Shown one piece after another: positions 31,635 through 61,749 of a DNA stretch of 64,000 nt. Numbering within the stretch: the first letter of the stretch is position 1; every line of letters starts with the position of its first letter. A program made the position numbers and the translations under genes. The stretch is taken from NCBI GenBank assembly GCA_965113315.1, contig OZ220366.1; one strand, given 5' to 3'. This DNA is from Podarcis vaucheri. Lineage: Eukaryota. The notes below the pieces were generated by a model. That model was not told the origin of the DNA, ran no database searches, and saw nothing but the letters and a program-made list of their open reading frames with translations.

Positions 31635-34600
31635 TTATGTTTCATACAACTTATAATACTTTTGCAAATAGTCTTTAAATTTTTTCCAGTCCTCCTCCAT
31701 TGCCTCTTCTCCCAAGTCTCGGATCCTTGCAGTCATCTCGGCCAGTTCCATGTAGTTCATCAATTGCGTCTGCCAGTCCTCCAGTGTGGGCAAATCTTGG
31801 GTCTTCCAATGCTTAGCGATAAGGATTCTTGCTGCTGTTGTAGCGTACATAAAAAATGTTCTATCCTTTTTTAACACCTTCTGGCCGACAATGCCCAGAA
31901 GGAAGGCCTCTGGTTTCTTGGGGAAGGTGTACTTGAACACCTTTTTTAACTCGTTATAGATCATTTCCCAAAAGGCCTTCAGTCTTGGACAAGTCCACCA
32001 GAGGTGAAAGAATGTCCCTTCAGCCTCCTTGCATTTCCAACATTTATTGTCAGACAAATGGTATATCTTAGCGAGCTTGACTGGGGTCATGTACCACCTG
32101 TATACCATTTTCATAATGTTTTCTTTCAAGGCATTACATGCCGTAAATTTCATACCGGTGGTCCATAACCTTTCCCAGTCCTCAGACATAATATTGTAAC
32201 CAATGTCTTGAGCCCATTTTATCATGGCTGATTTAACTGTCTCATCCTGAGTATTCCATTTAAGCAGCAAGTTGTACATTCTCGATAATACCTTGGTACC
32301 AATTTTGCACCTTATCCTTTAATTTTTCAAAGCTCTGCAACCTCCAATTGCCTCCAATGTTTTCTATTATTTCCCAATATTTCGGCCAATATGCCTCCAT
32401 ATTGGATGTTTTCCGAGCTTTGGCCTCTATTGGTGAAATCCACCTCGGAGTTTTACTTTCCAGTAAGTCTTTGTATTTTTTCCAGACCATATATATTGCT
32501 TTTCTGACAATATGGTTTTTGAACATTCCATGTGTTTTCCCCTTGTCATACCACAAATACGCATGCCAACCTAACGAATTATTGAAGCCTTCCAGATCAA
32601 GGACATCAGTGTTTTCCAATAAGATCCAATCTTTCATCCAGCAGAAGGCCGCAGCTTCATAATATAACCTTAAGTCCGGCAGGGCGAACCCCCCTCTCTC
32701 CTTTGCATCAGTTAGTATTTTAAACTTTATTCGGGGCTTTTTGCCCTGCCAGACAAACCTAGAAATATCCCTCTGCCACTTTCCAAAACATTCCACTCTG
32801 TCCACGACCTGCAAGGCTTGAAACAAAAACAACATCTTTGGCAAAACGTTCATTTTTATAGCTGCAATTCGGCCTAACAAGGATAATTTCAATCTTGACC
32901 AAATTTCTAGATCTTTTTTCATAGTTATCTTTAAACAGATTCAAATTCTTAGAAGACAGGTTGACCCCCAGGTATTTCACTTTTTTAACAATGTTTAGTT
33001 CTGTTTCCTTCTGAAACCCCTCTGTTTCAGTAACCGTCAAGTTTTTCCCTAGCACCTTAGTTTTTTGTTTGTTCAGCTTAAAACCCGCCACCCGACCAAA
33101 TTTCTGAATCAATTCCAAAACTCTTTTTGTACTAGGTTCTGGCTCCTGTAATGTTAAAACCAAGTCATCTGCAAATGCTTTCAGTTTATATTGTTTCGCT
33201 CCGACCCGTATTCCTTGTACCTGCCGATCCTCCCTTATCATATTCAGCAAAACCTCCAGGACTGAAATAAACAACAGAGGGGATAGGGGGCACCCCTGGC
33301 GTGTTCCTTTTTCAATATGAAGTTCTTCTGTCACCACATTGTTCACTATCAACTTAGCTTTTTGTTCTGAATAGATTGCCTCTATTCCATTCTCAAACCC
33401 CCTTCCCACTCCCATCCCTTCCAAGTTTTTCTTCATAAATTTCCAAGAAATGTTGTCAAAGGCCTTCTCCGCATCAATAAAAATTAACACTGCTTTGGTG
33501 TTAATATTTGTTTGTAAAAGTTCCAGAATATCGATAATATTCCTGGTGTTATCAAACAAGTGTCTACCTGGGAGAAAGCCTGCTTGGTCCTTATGAATTA
33601 CTTCATTTAATACTTTTTAAAATCTGTTAGCCAACACATCTGCAAATATTTTGTAATCCACGTTTAGGAGTGAGATGGGGCGGTAGTTCTTAAGTTGAGT
33701 CTTTTCAGTTTCCACTTTAGGTATCAGTGTGATGAATGCTTCTTTCCACGTATCTGGTGCCCTCCCTCCCCCCATAATCTGGTTACAAACCTCCATTAAT
33801 GGTTGTATCAAATAGTCTTTTAACATCCTGTAGTACTTGGAGGTGAGTCCATCAGGGCCTGGAGATTTGCCTAGTTGCATATTCTGAATGGCATCCTCGA
33901 TTTCCTGTTGTGTTATTTTACAATTCAAGATTGATCTCTTCTCTTGAGATAATTTTGGTAGGCCGTTGTCTTTCAAAAATTGTTCTATCTCAGTTGCTTC
34001 CTCGGATTCTTGTGTGTACAATTTTTTAAAATATTTCTGGAAACACTTTCTAATTTCTCCCGGTTTCTGAATGTTTTTCCCTTCAACTTCTAAGTTGGTG
34101 ACATAATTTAATTTTTGTCTCTTTTTCAACTGCCAAGCTAGCAGTTTCCCACATTTGTTCGCAGATTCAAAAGATCTTTGTTTCATTTGTTTGATTTTCC
34201 ATTCCACTTCTTGGTTAATCAATTTCGCATATTGTGACTGGTGAAATTTGATTTCTCTTAAAGTCTCTTTTGATTTTGGATTCACTCTTAATTTTTTCTC
34301 TCCATCTCTTATCTTCTCCAATATCTTGTCTTTTTTACCATTCCAAAGTTTTTTCTTGATCGTATTCTGTTGTATCAGAAACCCTCTCATAACAGCTTTG
34401 CTTGCGTCCCAGATTATTCTTTTTTCCACCGAGGTATTCAAGTTAATTTCAAAATAGTCCTTTAAAGCTTTTTGGGCCTTCTTTACAATCTCTTGATCTC
34501 TTAGCAGGTTGTCATTCATTTTCCATCTGAAGGAGTCGGCAGTAGTAAATCTCATTTCCATTTTCAAAGCGTTATGGTCGGAGCAAGTCTTTGGGCAGAT

Positions 34601-35257
34601 TTCTATTTTTATAGTCTTAGGTGCCAGCCCTCTAGTTGCCCAGATTTGGTCGATTCTTGTCCATGACAGGTGGGCCTCAGAAAAGAAAGTTCCTTCTTTA
34701 CCTAGGGGGTTTCTCGTCCTCCATAAATCAATTAGGTCCATATTGTCAGTTAGTTCAAAGAAAGTTTTTGGTAGTCTTCCATCTTTAGTCAGATTCTGAT
34801 TCTGTGACTTATCCATAAAAGTAGAGACGACCCCATTCATATCTCCCATCATAATGATGTTGGAATAGTCCAGATAGTCCAGTAGTGTCTCATGCAGCTT
34901 CTTATAAAATTCTGATTTCCCCTCATTTGGTGCATATATTCCTAATATCAAAACTTTCTCTCCTTGAGTCGAAATTTCAATAGCCAGGATTCTTCCTTGT
35001 TCATCTTTAAACAAAAATTTTGGTGATAAATTCTCCTTGGCGTAGATCACCACGCCTCTCTTCTTAACTCTATCTGATGAAATAAATTCTTGGCCTAATC
35101 TTTTATTTATTAACACCTTCCTGTGTAACCTGGTCACGTGGGTTTCTTGCAAACAAATTATGTCCAAATTCTCTTTCTTTAGAATATGGAAGATCCTTTT
35201 GCGTTTTTCTGGGGAATTCGCGCCATTAATGTTCCAACTATACAGCTGCAGAGACAT
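31635..35257 (-). pseudogene. L1 ORF2 (APE endonuclease, reverse transcriptase, CCHC), disrupted
   Basis: ATG at 35257, 17 nt after the ORF1 stop. EN motifs SWNING, LQETH, IYAPN, GDMN, RID, SDH; RT motifs YRPISLLN, DAEKAFD, GTRQGCPLSP, FADD, KYLG; C-terminal CWKC-x8-H-x4-C. In-frame TAA at 33617-33619; frameshifts near 32915 and 32297. Confidence 0.94.
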
Positions 35258-35274
35258 CCTGTAACAATCTGTTG

Positions 35275-36324
35275 TTACTCTTGTTGGGCGTCTTCTTTTT
35301 TGTCCAAATCCGAGGGTGGTAACTCTTTTCCAGACTCTGGTGGTGGCCAAATAGCTGCCACTCCTTTCTGCAAGTCTTCTCCGTGGTCGTGTAGGAACTT
35401 CTGGCTGTCCTCTTTCGTTTTGATTTTTGTCTTCTTTCCTTTGTATTTGAATGAGAGGCCTTGTGGGAACTCCCACCTGTATGGTATTCCGTTACCCCTC
35501 AAAAGTCCAGCTAGGTCAGTGTAGTTAGATCTGAGATCCAGTAATTGTTTAGGAATATCCTTGTAGATTTGTGCTCTTCTGTCCTGGATCTCAAGTGCTT
35601 TGTTAAAATGTAGGTCGAGTAGCTTGTCTCTCTCCTGCTTAGTCCTTAAGATAATCAAACAGTCTCTAGGTCTGTCCTTCCCAGCAGCTCTTCCCAATCT
35701 GAATGCAGTTGTTATTTTAAAGTCTGTATCTTCGTTTATACCCCAGAATTTAGAAAATTCTGTTGTTAAAAAGCCAATCAAGTCCTCTTTCTCAATCTCT
35801 GGGATAGAGCGTAATCTCAAATTATTTTCCCTGTTTCGCAGTTCCACCAAAGACAGATAGGCCTGTTGGTCAGTAATATGTTTATGGAGCGGCCTTACCT
35901 CTCCTTTCAATTCCTCCACTTCTTTAGTTGCTGCTTCTGCTTTTTCATTCGCAGCCTCGGCCAATTTTCGATTTTCAGATACAACGTCCTTTAGACTTCC
36001 AATATCTTGTGAATGCTTAGCCACCTGTTCAGAGAGTTTGGTAATTGAAGATGTGGCTAAGTCAATTTTTGCAGTTTGATCATCCACTTTTTTGTTCAAA
36101 ATTGCAAATTGTTGTAACATTTCCTCTAGGAGAATGTTAGATCCCCCAGCTGCCATATCTTCACTTGTTAACTGTTCAGGTTCTTCAGCTGGGGTTGTTG
36201 GTGATGGTACAGCCTGTAGAACCGCAGGGACTGAAGATCTGTGAGCCTGGGAAACCAGAGTTGATTGTACCAATTTGCCTTTGCCTGCTTTCGACGCAGC
36301 TCTTGTTTTTACTCGGTTGCTCAT
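35275..36324 (-). CDS. L1 ORF1p, intact, 349 aa (coiled coil, RRM, CTD)
   Basis: Heptad-rich helical region, then RNRENNLRLRSIPE, AFRLG, PRDCLIIL, IYKDIP and YRWEFPQGLSF, matching the L1 ORF1 motif order. Confidence 0.9.
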   Translation of the reverse strand: MSNRVKTRAASKAGKGKLVQSTLVSQAHRSSVPAVLQAVPSPTTPAEEPEQLTSEDMAAGGSNILLEEMLQQFAILNKKVDDQTAKIDLATSSITKLSEQVAKHSQDIGSLKDVVSENRKLAEAANEKAEAATKEVEELKGEVRPLHKHITDQQAYLSLVELRNRENNLRLRSIPEIEKEDLIGFLTTEFSKFWGINEDTDFKITTAFRLGRAAGKDRPRDCLIILRTKQERDKLLDLHFNKALEIQDRRAQIYKDIPKQLLDLRSNYTDLAGLLRGNGIPYRWEFPQGLSFKYKGKKTKIKTKEDSQKFLHDHGEDLQKGVAAIWPPPESGKELPPSDLDKKEDAQQE

Positions 36325-36929
36325 TCCACACCTGTCTTTGGATTCAAGGTCAAGCTGTCAAAAGTTCCATGGAAAAGACAGGCCTCAGAGTGAATAACCA
36401 GACCACAGAGAGACAAAACAAAGTTGGTTCTCAGGAAATTGTAAATCCCAAACTCCACTAGAGGGAGTATTGTTCAGTTCATGAAAGAAGAAACAAAGTT
36501 TCAGTCGCCATTAAAGTTCCTACAGTTAAATAAGTAAGCCATAGTCTTTAGAGAGGACCTTTTCCCTCTGGCAGAGCCCTCTCAATTTTGCCACAATAGT
36601 TTCTTAAAAGGTGCAAAATACAGTTGCTTAATTGTATCCACCAGTAATGCCTCTAAGTATCAGTTTCAGCTTTGTAAGTGTATCCGCAAAACAGCCTTTT
36701 GCCCACTGCAAGTCCGGGACTAGGGGTTTTCAAGTCTTTAAAGTTTTTAAAAGTCTAACAGAGGAGAAAAACCCCAAACAGAATAAACACAGTAGCAGGA
36801 AAAAAAAGATAACTTGCCTTTCACCTTCAGTTTCCAACTTCTCCAGACGTATGCTGTCTCTCATTTAAAAACCCTTTTGTACTGCTTCCAGCTTGTCAGT
36901 TCCTTTGCCTTTGATCACTAAGCACCACC

Positions 36930-52938: not shown

Positions 52939-53115
52939 NNNNNNNNNNNNNNNNNNNNNNNNNNNNNNNNNNNNNNNNNNNNNNNNNNNNNNNNNNNNNN
53001 NNNNNNNNNNNNNNNNNNNNNNNNNNNNNNNNNNNNNNNNNNNNNNNNNNNNNNNNNNNNNNNNNNNNNNNNNNNNNNNNNNNNNNNNNNNNNNNNNNNN
53101 NNNNNNNNNNNNNNN
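52939..53115. other. Assembly gap (177 N)
   Basis: Run of N. The right flank (53116-53325) is a MITE end terminating in TATGGCAACCCTA. Confidence 0.99.
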
Positions 53116-55920
53116 AGGAAAATTCCTGACATGTCCTGGTTTTCTGGTGTAAAAATGGTGTCGGGGGGAATTTAGCCGATTCGGCAAAATGTCAGGGGAA
53201 ATCCAGGTGTATGACAATGCGATAGAAAAAGCAGCATAAAATCACTAATTTGGGGGGAGGCTTTCCCAAAAAAGCCAACAATTTTTGTGGTTTCAGGAAT
53301 TCAACTTTTGAATTATGGCAACCCTATATAATAGCAAGCTAATTCCCCCAAACGGTACAGAGATCAGTATCCACGAGTGGAATTTATACCATCAGAGTTA
53401 CAGTGCCTTTGCTTCTTCTCTAAAAACTTCTAGAGCTGAGCCAGCAGACCTCGTGGGAAGATAATTCCATTTCCTATCAGCTTAACAGCTATGTTGCAAT
53501 CAAGCCACTAAGGTTTGTACTGGAAAGTATCTCATATGTTTATGATCAGGTGTCAGGATTAGAGCATTATGAGATCCGGCCAAATTTCCCCATTCTAAAG
53601 CCTGTTTGTCTTCTGGGGGCGGTGGGGACAATGGAACTCAAAAGCCTGCTTCAAGTGAAGATTTATTTGAGTTTTCCGGATCAGCTAGCTCTAACCAAAA
53701 ACCATCAGCATTCAGTGGAAATTTAGCTCAAGAGGCATCCGCTGGGATATCTTTTAATTTGATCATTAATCCTAATTGCACAAGTCACTGGCTTCCAGGC
53801 TAAAATAAATAAGAGAAAAGAAAAGGGCAGCAGCCTTCTTTTCAGCTTTGGCATCTATACCTACCTCAATATTTAAATAGCAAATTAAGTCATTAACACA
53901 CACAAAAATCCAGGAAAAGCAAAATATGAAAATTTGTTCTATTAACTCATATAAAACTTTAATGTGGAATGAAAATGATTCATTTAGTTTGATGGCTTGT
54001 ATTTTCAGCTTCTAAAGACTTTCAAGTGTAACTGTTAATGGTCCAGTCTCGAAGAATGCATCGTTGCCTCTTGAACGTGGACTTTATTTCACTTCCAGTG
54101 CCCCCAGTTAACTAGGCCAAATCCTGACTACTACATGATTTTAAAAAATGACATTTTGCTTTCACTGATTATGTAGCATGATTCCTTTCTTATTGAAAAA
54201 AGAAAGAGGGAAAGCAAGTCAGTTTTTCCAAGTACAGTGAAACAATATGTTAATGTTAAACAAATGAAAATGGGCTTGTCCTTACTGATAAGTACATGTC
54301 TATATACTAGAACTGTGCAGTTGTTATGCATGTGTCTGTATGCATAGCATTTGGAATCTGCTTGATTTGTTTCAGATCTGCTCTGTGTTCTTCCAGTCCA
54401 ATTCATTATGTAAGTGCAAATCTCATCTGTTAAATCCAAAGCTGTTTCACCTCATTAACTATAACAGGGAATCTAAAAACAGTATAACTTTTCACATAAG
54501 TGGATAAAATTTGCAGCCATTACAGGCATGGTCACCCCTTCAAAGTGAATGAAGCCTGGTAAATTTCAAAAAAGATTGCTGCAGTTCTTTCTCAAGGGCA
54601 GAGAACCACATTCTCTCAAGTAGTCCTTTTTTTTTGGGGGGGGGAGGCCAATCAGATTGAAAACTGGAACACGAGGGAGGCATGCCAGGTAAAATTACTG
54701 TCAAAGTTCAGACAGATCCTGTAGGTCCAGGAGCCATCATGCTACATGGTTTTACCATAATTATATATGTAAATAAATGGAGAAATTATCACCATGAGAA
54801 GAGGGAGAAAAGGGAAAGTGAACATGCTATGTTTTTAAATTGTTAAGAAAAAAGAATGATTGAGGAAGAAACAAGCCACTCCACCACTTACACCCTGCTC
54901 TTACAGCCAAAACCACCAACACGCTGTGATTGGAATGCTCTGTGAAAATAATTCACTATGATTAAAAGCTGGGCCTGTCCCTGCCCACTGCCCTCGCCCA
55001 CATTCCCAATCATCTCAGCTCAAGCTTGATTTCATTTATGGGGGAAAAATAGGGGAGTAGGGAAAGCTTTGTTTCTGAAAGGACGCAACAAACCTACTCA
55101 AGGATGCAACAAACCTACTCTCAGCTCTGCCCCCACCTGACTTTGGAGCATGAGATCATTACCCAAATCACCCCAGATCACGCCATTATTTAGGGTACAC
55201 ATGGAGTTAATGCATACTCCTTATCCATATTCTTGCAAATTGATTCCCAAAATACTGTCAACTGAAATGTGCACTAATACACCAGGGTTTAGGTGGTTGC
55301 CACATTGTGCCATGAGAAAAAAAGCATACTGAAAGCTTCACATATCAGTGTGGAGTATGGAAGGAGAGCAGGGTCAACCCCTCCCCCCAAGTTTCATTTC
55401 ATTTTTACCAATTTATCATAAGCAGGAGCCAACCATTCCAAGCTGGGAACTAACAGTCAGAACAGCTGACACATTCTGGAGAAGGTCAGGACCAATGCAC
55501 CTTTATATTGCTTTACAGTCAGAGACTCTTGTTCTGCTTCCAGCTGCTCATCTCTGATATACTGAAATTGTGTGTGAGCCCTTCCTGTGCAGACCTTCTG
55601 TGCAGTTTGCTGTCCATGAAGTTATTTTGGGTTTTTTTCTAAGTGTTTGTGTAACTAATGAATCAGGAGCAGTCTGTGGGGCAGGGCAACACTGCTTATT
55701 TGACCCTTCATCACCATTGCTCTGACTTATTGAAAAGAATAGGGGGAGGTGGTAATGTCAATGCAGTGGAAACACACCAGTGGATCCAATTCAGCATTCC
55801 TACTGCTCCATTTGCACCATGCAGGTGTAACTGCCTCCCTTTCTGAAAGCAGCCCTGTATTGGGAGGTGTTTAGTGCTTGATGTTTTTATTATGTTTTTA
55901 GATATGCTGTAAGCCACCCA

Positions 55921-57004
55921 TAATTCAAAAGCATCAATTCTTCGGCGATCAGCCTTCTTTATGGTCCAGCTCTCACTTCCATACATCACTACTGGGAAAA
56001 CCATGGCTTTTACTATACGGACCTTTGTTGGCAAGGTGATGTCTCTGCTTTTTAAGATGTTGTCTAGGTTTGCCATCGCCTTTCTCCCAAGGAGCAGGCG
56101 TCTTTTAATTTCGTGACTGCTGTCCAGTGGCGTAGCGTGGGGGGTGCCAGGGGTGCCGGCCGCACCGGGCGCAACATTTTGGGGGGCGCATTTGGCCGGC
56201 CCTCCTCGAGGAAGCAGGAACCCCACTGTCCTCGGACCTCCTCTGAAGGCTGGCGGTGGGGTGGAGAGACCTCCTCCCCGCGCCAGCCTTCGGATGGCTG
56301 TCCTGAAGACTTGTGGTGGGAGCAGTGGCGTAGCATGGGGGTGCAGGGGGGCCTGCTGCACCTGGCACAACATCTGGGGGCGCACGGAAGAGACTCGAGT
56401 GCTAAAATCCATGGGTTAGGGGGCGCAAATTACTTGCCTTGCCCCGGGTGCTGAGAACCCACGCTACGCCACTGCTGCTGTCACCATCTGCACTGATCAT
56501 GGCGCCCAAGAAAGTAAAATCTCTCACTGCCTCCATTTCTTCCCCATCTATTTGCCAGGAGGTGATGGGCCCAGTGGCCATGATCTTCGTTTTTTTGATG
56601 TTGAGCTTCAGACCATATTTTGCGCTCTCCTCTTTCACCCTCATTAAAAGGTTCTTTAATTCCTCTTCACTTTCTGCCATCAAGGTTGTGTCATCTGCAT
56701 ATCTGAGGTTGTTGATAAAATCAGCCCTGAGCGCTCACTGGAAGGACAGATCGTGAAGCTGAGGCTCCAATACTTTGGCCACCTCATGAGAAGAGAAGAC
56801 TCCCTGGAAAAGACCCTGATGTTGGGAAAGATGGAGGGCACAAGGAGAAGGGGACGACAGAGAATGAGCTGGTTGGATGGTGTTCTTGAAGCTACTAGCA
56901 TGAGTTTGATCAAACTGCGGGAGACAGTGGAGGACAGAAGTGCCTGGGGTGCTCTGGTCCATGGGGTCACGAAGAGTCGGACACGACTAAACGACTAAAC
57001 AACA
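55921..57004. mobile_element. BovB (RTE) LINE, 5'-truncated and 5'-inverted
   Basis: Minus segment 55921-~56717 encodes INNLRYADDTTLMAESEEELKNLLMRVKEES...RIDAFELW. Plus segment ~56718-57004 encodes KLRLQYFGHLMRREDSLEKTLMLGK...HGVTKSRTRLND*. 10-bp TSD AAGCCACCCA (55911-55920, 57005-57014). Confidence 0.94.
56125..56474. mobile_element. hAT-type MITE (350 bp) nested in BovB
   Basis: Perfect 17-bp TIR CAGTGGCGTAGCGTGGG / CCCACGCTACGCCACTG; perfect 8-bp TSD CTGCTGTC (56117-56124, 56475-56482). Confidence 0.93.
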
Positions 57005-57924: not shown

Positions 57925-60763
57925 GTTTCATCATCTCCACCTCTCAAGTTACCACTTAACTGGAGACTCCAGTTAATTTTATTAGTTAATAGTTAAATTA
58001 CTGTTCAAATTTACTATTAAAAATTAGTTATTAAAAGTTTTGGAAGACTTTCCAAATCTGTTTCCTAATATGCAATATCAACAACTGTTTCTTTCATGTT
58101 GCTGTTTTACTTCTTTATTCATTCTCCAGATTAAATCTGGTGATGCTTGAAAAATGTTAATTTCCAAACCAATGAAGAGTATATTTTGATGCTCATTTTG
58201 CTATAGCAACATGTGCTGGTTTTTTATTCCCTCATAAACTTGTGTGTCAAAAATATGGACACTGGATTAATTACAATTCACTAATTTGTGTCCATTACTG
58301 CCTTTGTTTTACAGACAGAAAGTTATTTAACTCAACAGATGGGAAGATGTCTGCAAGTCATAAACCTAATACTATTCTAGTAAAAGTCAACATAAGGTTC
58401 TTGCTTCTTGAAGTGTAAAGCTACTTTATACAAATGAAATTTCACAATAAAATTACTTAGTACTTACTGCAAAGTCCCACAACACATATCAAACCATTCA
58501 AGATAAAAGGATTTCCTCTTATTGGAACACATAAGACCTCCATAATATTTTGTGTCCCTCTTGTGATTGACTATATAGCTTAGCCCACATGTTTGAAAAA
58601 GAAAGTGTATCATAGCACAGTAAAATGTTGCTCAAGAAACTACTTCTTTTCACAAAATGCTTATCTGGAATTCATGAGATCTGGGATAAACTTCAGGCAG
58701 TGTTGCAGAGATTCCATGTGAATCCCTAAAACACAGGTAAAGTTAACTCCTTGGACCAGTTAATCTGATTTAACACCAATTTATATGCAATTTATGGAGA
58801 AAGACTATTTTCCCTGGAATGGTGGCTGAGCGACTGCAGGATCCATGGCCTCTTTTTTTGCAGATGGATAGGGAGAACCACAGATGACAGGCAGATGCAG
58901 AAAGGTACAGGGCCACTGCTCTTCTGCTGCTGGTGCTCCATGGACAAAACTGGGATAAGAGGCTGATTATGATTCTTGTACACATGAATCTTTTGGTTTT
59001 ATCTCAGAATGCAGGATTTTACTTTCTTGCCAAGCAGTTTGATCAGTAAGGGTAGGAGATGTTCAAGGCTTTTCTATCCCCCACCAAATGGCCCAGCAGA
59101 AAATTAGCAAGAGGGGAATCTGGGGTGATGTCTTCAGGTCACCACAAACCCCTTGCTGTTCAACTTCAGACCTTCGAAAGAGACAAACCCGGAAGGAGGG
59201 AAACTGATACATGTTGCAAACTCACCCATGGAGCTAAGAGCCACTACCTCCCCACTCCTGTTATTCCCCCCGGTCAGCAACAGTGACCCACCTGCAGGCA
59301 AGAGAACATAGTGGTTCTGCTCCATCCAGCGAACGCTTCTGCCTGAAACATGCTCAGAACAGAATTTGTAATTTATGAAACTACACTCAAGAAAATGCAG
59401 TGCATAGCACTGTCTACATGTATCATTTCAACAGAAACTTGAAAGTAAGTTATATTAATGTTACCGCCTCCCATTCTAACTTCCTTTCTATCAAAGCAAT
59501 AGTTGGTCCCTCCATAGCATATAGTTTATTAAAATTGAAATTAGTGATTGAAATTATATCTCCAGGAAGCTGTCATGATTCCCATTACAATGAGAATGTA
59601 ATTACAGTTTAATTTATAACAAGTGTATTTCAATTATTTTTCTCAGAAATGAGAAACTTATTATTAGCAACTAATTTCAAGAATGCCAAGGTTTTGTCTG
59701 CAGATGATTCATTTATTTGCTGCCAAATAAAAACAAGAGACTAGACTTTATGTTGAAGAGGGTACGTATGAAAAAGTTTAAAATAAACTATGGTGCAAGT
59801 ATAATCTGTTGGAGGCACATGTGATTCTCTCTGCACCTTTATTATAAGTAAATGTGATTATCTCTGTCTTGGAAAGAGTGACAGTTAAGTGTTGGAAGGG
59901 GGGAGAATTATTCTCAAGGACACTTCTTAAAAATGAATTTAGAAGCATGCTGCTTAATAAATAATGCAGCCTACCAGTCCTTGATGCTTTACTTTCAGGA
60001 CTAGGACTCCCTGCAAATTGCCAAGAGCATTTAATGTTACAGAAATGATAATAATTTGTGCAATTCAATGCGCAAGAGTTCAAAGATTCAAACGTCTAAG
60101 CATTTTTGTAATATCCAGGCATTATTGCTTTACCGATTCCACATCGAAGTATCACAGTCTGGTAGGCATGTTTGCACATCACATTGCAATGAATGAAATA
60201 CGCCAAAGAGCCTGAATTTGCACAAACCTTATTGTCTTCAATGGATCTTGAATTAAAGAGGTCCTTGAAGGACTGTGCTCAGTGTGCAATGAGTGAATGT
60301 GAACAGACTTACGCCAACAAAATGCATCACTTCTAGGTAGGGATGGACATATCTGTTGATTTCAGTTTCGCTCAATTTTGCATTCTTTCAATTTTAAGTT
60401 TGGTTCACTCCATTTATGCATCTGTTTGAAGTATTTAAAAAAATGGCAAGAAAGCCAGTATTTTAGTGTTTATGCCTCCCATTATACACATTTTAATGCC
60501 ATTTTGCCTAATATGCACATTTTTCTAACACATTTTACATGTTAGTTCAGTAATATATGCATTTTAATGCACTTACCCCTAAAATAGGCATTTTATTATA
60601 CATTTTTGATCAAAGAACTGCACTGCCAGACTTGGAAAAGTGTAGATTTCAAAAGCTAGCTGCGTTTGGCTTTGCGCATTGTTTCAGGAAGCTTGGAGGC
60701 AATGTGCTTCTGGTTGCTGGAAACTGCAGACGGGGAGAGTGCCCTCATACTTAGGTCCTCCTT

Positions 60764-60976
60764 TAAAAAATTCCTTCCAGTAGCACCTTAAAGACCAACT
60801 AAGTTAGTTCTTGGTATGAGCTTTCGTGTGCATGCACATTTCTTCAGATACACAGAAGAAGTGTGCATGCACACGAAAGCTCATACCAAGAACTAACTTA
60901 GTTGGTCTTTAAGGTGCTACTGGAAGGAATTTTTTTATTTTGACTATGGCAGACCAACACAGCTACCTATCTGTAA
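60764..60976. mobile_element. Penelope-like element remnant: inverted pseudo-LTR fold-back
   Basis: 81-bp inverted arms 60765-60845 / 60855-60935 with one mismatch and a 9-nt loop; 13-bp flanking direct repeat TTAGGTCCTCCTT (60751-60763, 60977-60989); hammerhead core motifs. Confidence 0.82.
60814..60851 (-). ncRNA. Minimal type I hammerhead ribozyme motif (possibly inactivated)
   Basis: Minus strand GUAU-CUGAAGA-A-AUGUGCAUGCACAC-GAAA-GC-UC-AUAC: stem I GUAU/AUAC, core CUGANGA and GAAA, palindromic AGCU stem III, UC cleavage site. Confidence 0.65.
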
Positions 60977-61749
60977 TTAGGTCCTCCTTGTGGGCTTCCC
61001 ATAGGCATCTGGTTGGCCACTTCAATAACAGAATGCTGGACTAGATAGGTCATTGATCTGATCCTACATGTTCTTCTTATGTTCTTACATTCGATAGGGA
61101 TATTTTTGTCCCATCCCTACTTCTAGATGCTATTTCAATGAGAAAAGAAAAGGACTTGTTAATTGTCCCATTAAAAAGAATTGGATTTAAAAGTGTTGAA
61201 CTTTGGCTGGACCTTGTCCAATATATTTTTGATGACATTGCATCTTACTTACATAAAAACTAGCATATGGCAAATGGTGGGGTGTCTTTAATCTTAATAT
61301 TTTAGTAAAATCCTGAGATACGTTTGGATATCTAAAGTGGGTATTTTAAGATGAAGAAAATCAAATGCTCTGAATAAGTATATATAGAGATAATTATTTC
61401 AAACTACAAGAAAAACAACTTCTTTTATCTCTGCAAGACCACTGAGCCAAAAATATAGCAGCAATTTTAAGGTTTGTTTAAGAAAAAAAGATGTTAAGTT
61501 CAGCAATCCAAAAATGGGTCTTTTCAAGAAAGCATTTCCTGCAGCTGTGAGATCTTATGACATCTTAAGTTTAGAACTTGTAACTAAAACGAGTTACCCA
61601 TTGTGTTTACAGAAGTTCTATTCATGGCAGGCTGCCTTTGCTAACCAGCTGAAATCTGGAAGTATTTATAAACAACAAAATACACTGGGAAGCCTGATTT
61701 TAAAAATCAGCCAGGTTGTTTAGGAATTTATCCCTCCACCTTTATACAA

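Follow-up and report, generated by a model that had tools for sequence, protein, structure and literature searches.

A 213-bp fold-back insertion with damaged hammerhead motifs, probably a Penelope-like by-product, in Podarcis vaucheri

The EN+ Penelope-like retroelements (PLEs) leave insertions of a recognizable build. In the cited passages, an inverted 5′-truncated copy adjoins the 5′ end and a tail of 30–40 bp stands on one end only (PMC8557442), and the rotifer examples have head-to-head repeats, a palindrome at the junction and target-site duplications (TSDs) of 8–10 bp (PMC3846280). The inverted truncated copy, the one-sided tail and the duplication make the standard PLE picture there (PMC8557442; PMC8969392). 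A lizard PLE protein is described to cut and extend both target strands in vitro, and its reverse transcription begins at two sites, one at each end of the tail, in a stem-loop that lies 111–118 nt from where stem II starts (PMC11167929).

Here, we analysed an insertion in a 64,000-nucleotide stretch of Podarcis vaucheri DNA, called the window below. The insertion shares with the complex EN+ PLE insertions, as far as the passages of PMC8557442 and PMC3846280 describe them, the head-to-head copies, the junction palindrome, the tail at one end, the TSD and the heavy 5′ truncation. It differs in that both copies are only about 90–120 nt long, no coding sequence is left and the whole makes a tight hairpin. 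Its duplication is 13 bp versus the rotifer range above, and its tail of about 41 nt lies at the upper edge of the described lengths.

The metazoan PLEs carry type I hammerhead ribozymes, and the passages of PMC4209133 give them a 4-bp stem I, CUGAAGA plus one nucleotide, GAAA and a palindromic minimal stem III, all shared by the locus. The minimal hammerhead of Chrysemys picta bellii in the supplement of that paper has the same layout as the motif here when compared by eye. Their stem II opens with G-C, which the family majority here shares, and the stem II here stands apart by forming a perfect palindrome of 14 nt around a 2-nt loop. Unlike those ribozymes, both copies here are damaged, and as they lie on opposite strands and point outward, no tandem dimer can form. 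The intact PLE minimal hammerheads are themselves described as weak, needing a dimer or a protein (PMC4209133; PMC11167929).

In Poseidon of Anolis carolinensis, as its passages in PMC11167929 have it, the hammerhead lies shortly upstream of the two tail-bounding 3′ ends, as here. The outer end is 111–118 nt from stem II there and 116 nt here, a likeness of layout; the clade may be Poseidon or Neptune. No RNA ends are seen at the predicted cut in either element. Stem II is also where the ORF of Poseidon begins. Our locus has no long ORF there, the frame of the ATG at 60867 being only 9 codons long, and the agreement at 116 nt may thus be coincidental.

Two other systems bear likeness in part. 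A single short Harbinger insertion of Xenopus folds into a tight duplex without a nearby second copy, as here, but according to the passages of PMC5625713 its palindrome is in the consensus, whereas here the palindrome arises anew at insertion. The non-LTR retrozymes, as described in bioRxiv 10.64898/2026.07.22.740005, are short, non-coding, hammerhead-bearing and PLE-derived, as is the locus. However, their units are arrayed head-to-tail and one strand carries two or more complete motifs, whereas the copies here are head-to-head and neither motif is complete, which places the locus outside the retrozyme definition.

We consider the insertion most probably (about 0.85) a by-product copy of the doubly 5′-truncated end of an EN+ PLE. 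The features that speak for it are the head-to-head inverted 5′-truncated copy, the tail of about 41 nt at one end, the TSD and a dispersed multicopy family. A sequence-only reading of the stretch had proposed a Penelope-type origin, and the layout of inverted truncated copy, direct copy, one-sided tail and TSD agrees with it. The identity is taken from the fit of layout and motif and not from a linked ORF; motif pattern scans of viral and metagenome contigs for a link to RT or GIY-YIG gave 0 matches.

The insertion and its surroundings

The features of the locus are the following.

60751–60763, plus strand: left TSD copy, 13 bp, identical to 60977–60989; with the insert and one copy removed, the halves of the host repeat come back in register
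60764–60857, minus strand: inverted 5′-truncated copy of the element end, tail-less, with the paired arm 60765–60845, assigned by arm pairing and family RNA reads
60814–60851, minus strand: minimal type I hammerhead layout in which G10.1 is replaced by A, with a predicted cut between 60818 and 60817, from motif analysis
60843–60857, strandless: inversion apex, which coincides with a 5-bp inverted repeat (5-nt loop) that the family itself carries; A at 60854 here, T in the family
60855–60935, plus strand: direct copy, paired arm, with a hammerhead remnant in which stem II, GAAA and AGCU are intact, stem I is absent and the core is broken
60936–60976, plus strand: unpaired 3′ extension (tail) of about 41 nt, on one side only, reaching the family 3′ end
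60977–60989, plus strand: right TSD copy, 13 bp, identical to 60751–60763
60690–61100, plus strand: older multicopy host repeat split by the insertion, seen from raised summed depth on both sides and from insert-free contigs of other copies

The 213-bp fold-back anatomy is real. The inverted arms, noticed earlier as near-perfect over 81 bp, pair at 80 of their 81 positions (60765–60845 with 60855–60935) with a single mismatch at 60839 and a 9-nt loop. No other short-loop inverted repeat in the window comes near this length, as the runners-up have arms of 22 and 19 nt. The hairpin folds with about −150 kcal/mol (z about −24) on both strands, and none of 200 shuffles is equally stable on either strand. 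The earlier claim of a 13-bp TSD holds as well, the match being exact over 13 bp and stopping before a 14th. The orientation of the two head-to-head copies was set by the hammerhead sense and the upstream family reads. Neither a second copy of the element within the 64-kb window nor a tandem array over the insert was found.

The read evidence comes from four coded runs on 60420–61319. X1 and X12 are from organism A and one sample; X3 is DNA of organism B, and X23 is RNA of organism B, about 12% of the run. In read-derived DNA, the left junction is spanned by X1 contig 1 (60420–60790) with 0 differences, and X1 carries 0.97 of the sampled words. Other copies of the host repeat, which we take to be a CR1-like 3′ end, cross the site without the insert (joints from 60739/60742 to 60979–60996). 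Moreover, the loose-end consensus before 60987 is identical to 60731–60760 at 21 of 30 letters, gap-free and compared by eye. These two observations independently confirm the insertion boundaries.

The exact TSD, the host repeat back in register, the 0-difference junction contig and the 0.97 word share all argue against an assembly or library artefact, although no listed contig spans the entire insert. A MITE or a microRNA-type hairpin with chance hammerhead likeness could be proposed instead, as Rfam microRNA-precursor models match over the insertion with E down to 7e-11, but every such match is below its gathering score. The repeats also meet in the middle and leave an unpaired tail at one end, unlike the terminal inverted repeats of a MITE, and the hammerhead descriptor described below finds 0 matches in 100 shuffled windows. 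We therefore hold artefact, MITE and microRNA together as barely credible; a microRNA-precursor identity was rejected, the scores below gathering being those of a generic hairpin.

A presence/absence polymorphism was considered and rejected. Among the 14 listed runs with half or more of the words, 13 have shares of 0.68–0.69, near the flank-only expectation of 0.685, but X12 is among these and comes from the same sample as X1. RNA runs are absent from the listed ones, which carries no weight as evidence. An organism B contig ends at 60753 with 36 letters unplaced; this would fit an empty site, and no such joint is among those listed.

Several other features lie around the insertion. At 59985–60336, two open frames (76 and 47 codons) overlap; they have a protein-like look and no matches; the 47-aa frame (60193–60333) has 0 matches among 1.84 billion proteins, and one nearby frame has no solved-structure match. 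As for a host gene, Pfam gave no match above the curated cut-off for the 12 frames near the insertion (18 frames in all). Another moderately repeated stretch at 60480–60570, with a summed depth of about 2400 versus 37 in X1, overlaps a 41-nt imperfect direct repeat. Farther away are a near full-length L1-type element on the minus strand (31635–36357), whose ORF1-like, endonuclease and RT frames are split over several reading frames, and a run of 177 N (52939–53115). A second LINE, presumably RTE/BovB-like, has left fragments at 55711–56998, with RT recognized by RVT_1 (E 6.9e-11). By its repeats, the window looks vertebrate-like and perhaps squamate.

Hammerhead motifs within the hairpin

The minus-strand motif has the full minimal type I layout that the sequence-only reading described. 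Stem I has 4 of 4 pairs and is followed by CUGAAGA with one extra A, a stem II of 5 of 6 pairs, GAAA and the palindromic AGCU; C17 is 60818, so the predicted cleavage falls between 60818 and 60817, as had been proposed. The minus copy thus has the CUGANGA core, the extra nucleotide, GAAA, NUH and the closing stem I of minimal type I hammerheads, which the plus copy does not. The mismatch noted earlier at the base of stem II is also there: the conserved G10.1-C11.1 pair is A.C in the minus copy, while the family majority keeps it.

The plus copy is damaged further than was noticed. Its core is broken, with A at core position 4 (CAGAAGA), but stem I is also gone, with 0 of 4 pairs and its 5′ strand missing. 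The palindromic stem II claimed for the minus motif is a perfect 14-nt palindrome in the plus copy only. Hence, both motifs at the locus are damaged relative to the family.

For the search, a minimal-hammerhead descriptor based on PMC4209133 was run with one stem II mismatch allowed or none. With one mismatch, the minus copy is the only match in the window on both strands, leaving no second same-strand motif there for dimer cleavage; without mismatch, the window has 0 matches. Rfam returned no hammerhead family among its 18 matches up to E 5.

The hairpin appears to leave little room for the ribozyme. From core position 3 onward, the unpaired probability is predicted to be below 0.1, and opening the core would cost 21–23 kcal/mol. 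When the folding of nascent minus-strand RNA is modelled, the motif is already paired once it is complete. Whichever strand is transcribed, the antisense arm comes first and the motif second, so there is no predicted window for the ribozyme to fold. The hairpin had been expected to compete with the ribozyme fold, and it is indeed predicted to win; a meaningful competition between the two finds no support. Self-cleavage at the locus is therefore unlikely in these folding models. No pile-up of RNA ends was found in the one fragmented RNA run (X23), which is a weak test of cleavage.

Family copies and the origin of the fold-back

The family is very abundant. The three DNA runs gave 12432, 18671 and 8450 contigs on 60420–61319, host-repeat contigs included, and the X1 summed depth over the element is 1.3–3.1 million versus about 38 on the unique flank, although summed depth is no copy number. 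This copy differs from the family majority at three sites (60839, 60854 and 60961), two of which break its motifs. At 60839, the majority has C on the plus strand with 97–99.5% of the summed depth in the three DNA runs (99.0% in X1) and in 386 of 388 family RNA reads. The family has T at 60854 in 254 of 254 RNA reads and G at 60961 with 87% in X1. The family majority thus keeps G10.1 and the CUGAAGA core, a conservation that had been set beforehand as a test of the hammerhead claim, and therefore the defects at the locus are this copy's own.

The position 60937 is A in organism A (G 1–2%) and G in organism B (85%), and this copy is A-type. The difference suggests different dominant subfamilies in two close species, with an alignment effect of the T-run also possible.

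Two 3′ ends, spaced by about 40 nt, are evident in the family: at 60976, 311 RNA reads pass from the element into flanks that differ from one another (agreement 0.47), and the range 60936–60945 is where many contigs stop. The inverted arm uses the inner end, so it is without the last 41 nt or so of the family 3′ end, and the direct arm uses the outer one. At the other side, 239 RNA reads of the family agree with the top strand as far as 60857, except for their T at 60854, and continue beyond it in upstream sequence of the family (agreement 0.94). A depth drop at 60854 was rejected as a truncation hot-spot, being an edge effect of the reference.

The sequence-only reading raised the prospect that the 213-bp unit is a dedicated hairpin family, and named variable inversion points as the result that would speak for one-off by-products instead. 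The reference runs antisense and then sense, and so another copy whose sequence jumps from the left arm into the right one has a head-to-head junction at that point. At least 15 distinct arm-to-arm joints were found in other copies, and they are scattered, with offsets from −56 to +85 nt among those listed; the count excludes the host-repeat joints, and for several listed joints the letters between the arms are not given. When the 15 listed joints were inspected by eye, two complete hammerheads are kept in none, one in five, nearly one in two and none at all in eight. With inversion points so variable and no listed joint keeping two complete hammerheads, the 213-bp unit is not the amplifying entity.

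A non-autonomous hairpin family, amplified as one piece with its apex fixed and its ribozyme locked in conformation, would have some points in its favour. At 60854, 13% of that position's depth is non-T in organism A versus 2% in organism B, and both short-read contigs and RNA libraries tend to contain too few hairpins. Non-autonomous PLE derivatives are also known to exist (bioRxiv 10.64898/2026.07.22.740005). However, the non-T residual, a rough ceiling for a shared apex, when set against the family depth at 60839 comes to just 1.2–1.5% in organism A (0.3% in organism B), which is similar to the residual at 60839 itself. The scattered joints, the single RNA read out of 1584 that lies wholly on the stretch (X23) and the lack of a second copy or a retrozyme-like tandem array in the window count against it as well, and we regard it as very improbable.

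In the family, 60853–60857 is the reverse complement of 60843–60847, which places the apex of the hairpin at an inverted repeat of 5 bp that is native to the element. This position would fit the joining of two antisense cDNAs there. In the proposed route, both strands of a 13-bp staggered cut would prime short antisense cDNAs, the top-strand one starting at the inner, tail-less site and the bottom-strand one at the outer site. Such unequal starts would give the 41-nt asymmetry between the arms. The two cDNAs would then anneal via the 5-nt match and be joined head-to-head at this short inverted repeat, next to the core of the hammerhead.

The hammerhead would be an inherited passenger of the element's terminal repeat in this route; the plus copy would never have had the 5′ strand of stem I, and the minus copy would have lost G10.1. 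The join of two cDNAs would account for every feature of the insertion. Two cDNAs that truncate independently are expected to give joint offsets as spread as the −56 to +85 nt of the 15 listed. A single cDNA would serve less well: folding back from the tail end, it would place the loop on the bottom strand, whereas the native antisense loop of the apex lies on the top strand, and starting at the tail-less end, it could not make the tail.

Antisense self-priming reads the same apex differently. The antisense RNA would fold back at the 5-bp inverted repeat and prime its own sense cDNA, and the tail would later be lost from one end on resolution. Such a process has been proposed for PLE junction palindromes (PMC3846280, passages cited), the loop polarity is as the model needs, and the deepest listed arm-to-arm joint in X1 lies inside the palindromic stem II. 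Offsets in both directions, up to 56 and 85 nt, are not readily given by a single fold-back, and in vitro work on the lizard PLE demonstrates that both strands of the target serve as primers (PMC11167929). We find self-priming rather unlikely and favour the two-cDNA route by about two to one. In the PLE literature searched, which held few subscription papers, 'twin priming' is absent and 'self-priming' is found only in PMC3846280; the two-cDNA reading may be in print.

The deepest listed X1 joint (60825/60863, depth 363.5 versus about 38 on the flank) belongs to other copies and is possibly a second recurrent inversion point. On a more speculative note, the hammerhead palindromes, namely the 5-bp repeat across stem I and the core and the 14-nt stem II, might be preferred points of cDNA joining. 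Ribozyme anatomy would then dictate the inverted insertions of Penelope, and thousands of resulting hairpins would explain the prominence of Penelope among the ADAR targets of lizards. This is possible, though on the doubtful side.

A>G signal in the family and its bearing

The sequence-only reading named the hairpin as a possible ADAR substrate, and the RNA reads favour this at the family level only. Three positions in family RNA (X23) have A>G on one strand: 42/242 versus 3/166 reads on the other at 60885, 114/314 versus 1/179 at 60900 and 98/344 versus 3/264 at 60911. These rates are 17–36% on one strand and below 2% on the other in the listed rows, and G at the same positions in X1 and X3 DNA is 0.02–0.5%. 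Each of the three is preceded by U, which holds for 5 of the 26 adenosines in the arms (P about 0.004, post hoc). The signal looks like ADAR-like editing of the family. The compared RNA and DNA come from different samples and individuals, and a strand skew also occurs at 60995 in the host repeat (C>T, 42/149 versus 4/129), yet that variant is common in DNA.

About the locus itself, the reads say little. X23 has 0 reads on the unique flanks 60420–60689 and 61080–61319, and organism B may lack the insertion. Editing of this very copy would follow by extension from the family. Either strand, if transcribed, is predicted to form an 81-bp duplex that would be edited by ADAR without self-cleavage.

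In a lizard, Penelope is reported to be heavily edited, with more than 40,000 hyper-edited sites (PMC5625713). The A>G changes there are as in the family RNA here, and the cited passages give no structural reason for the Penelope signal. The origin of the PLE inverted ends is likewise still described as unresolved in the passages of PMC8557442.

In summary, the locus is an ordinary insertion by-product of a known kind, and its ribozyme motifs are damaged and predicted to be inactive. It carries little weight of its own as one decayed copy among very many. The family is the useful part: a genome with so many short junctions could separate two-strand priming from antisense self-priming, and the family could give a structural reason for the heavy Penelope editing reported in a lizard. 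The remaining value thus lies in the junction population of the family and its editing signal.
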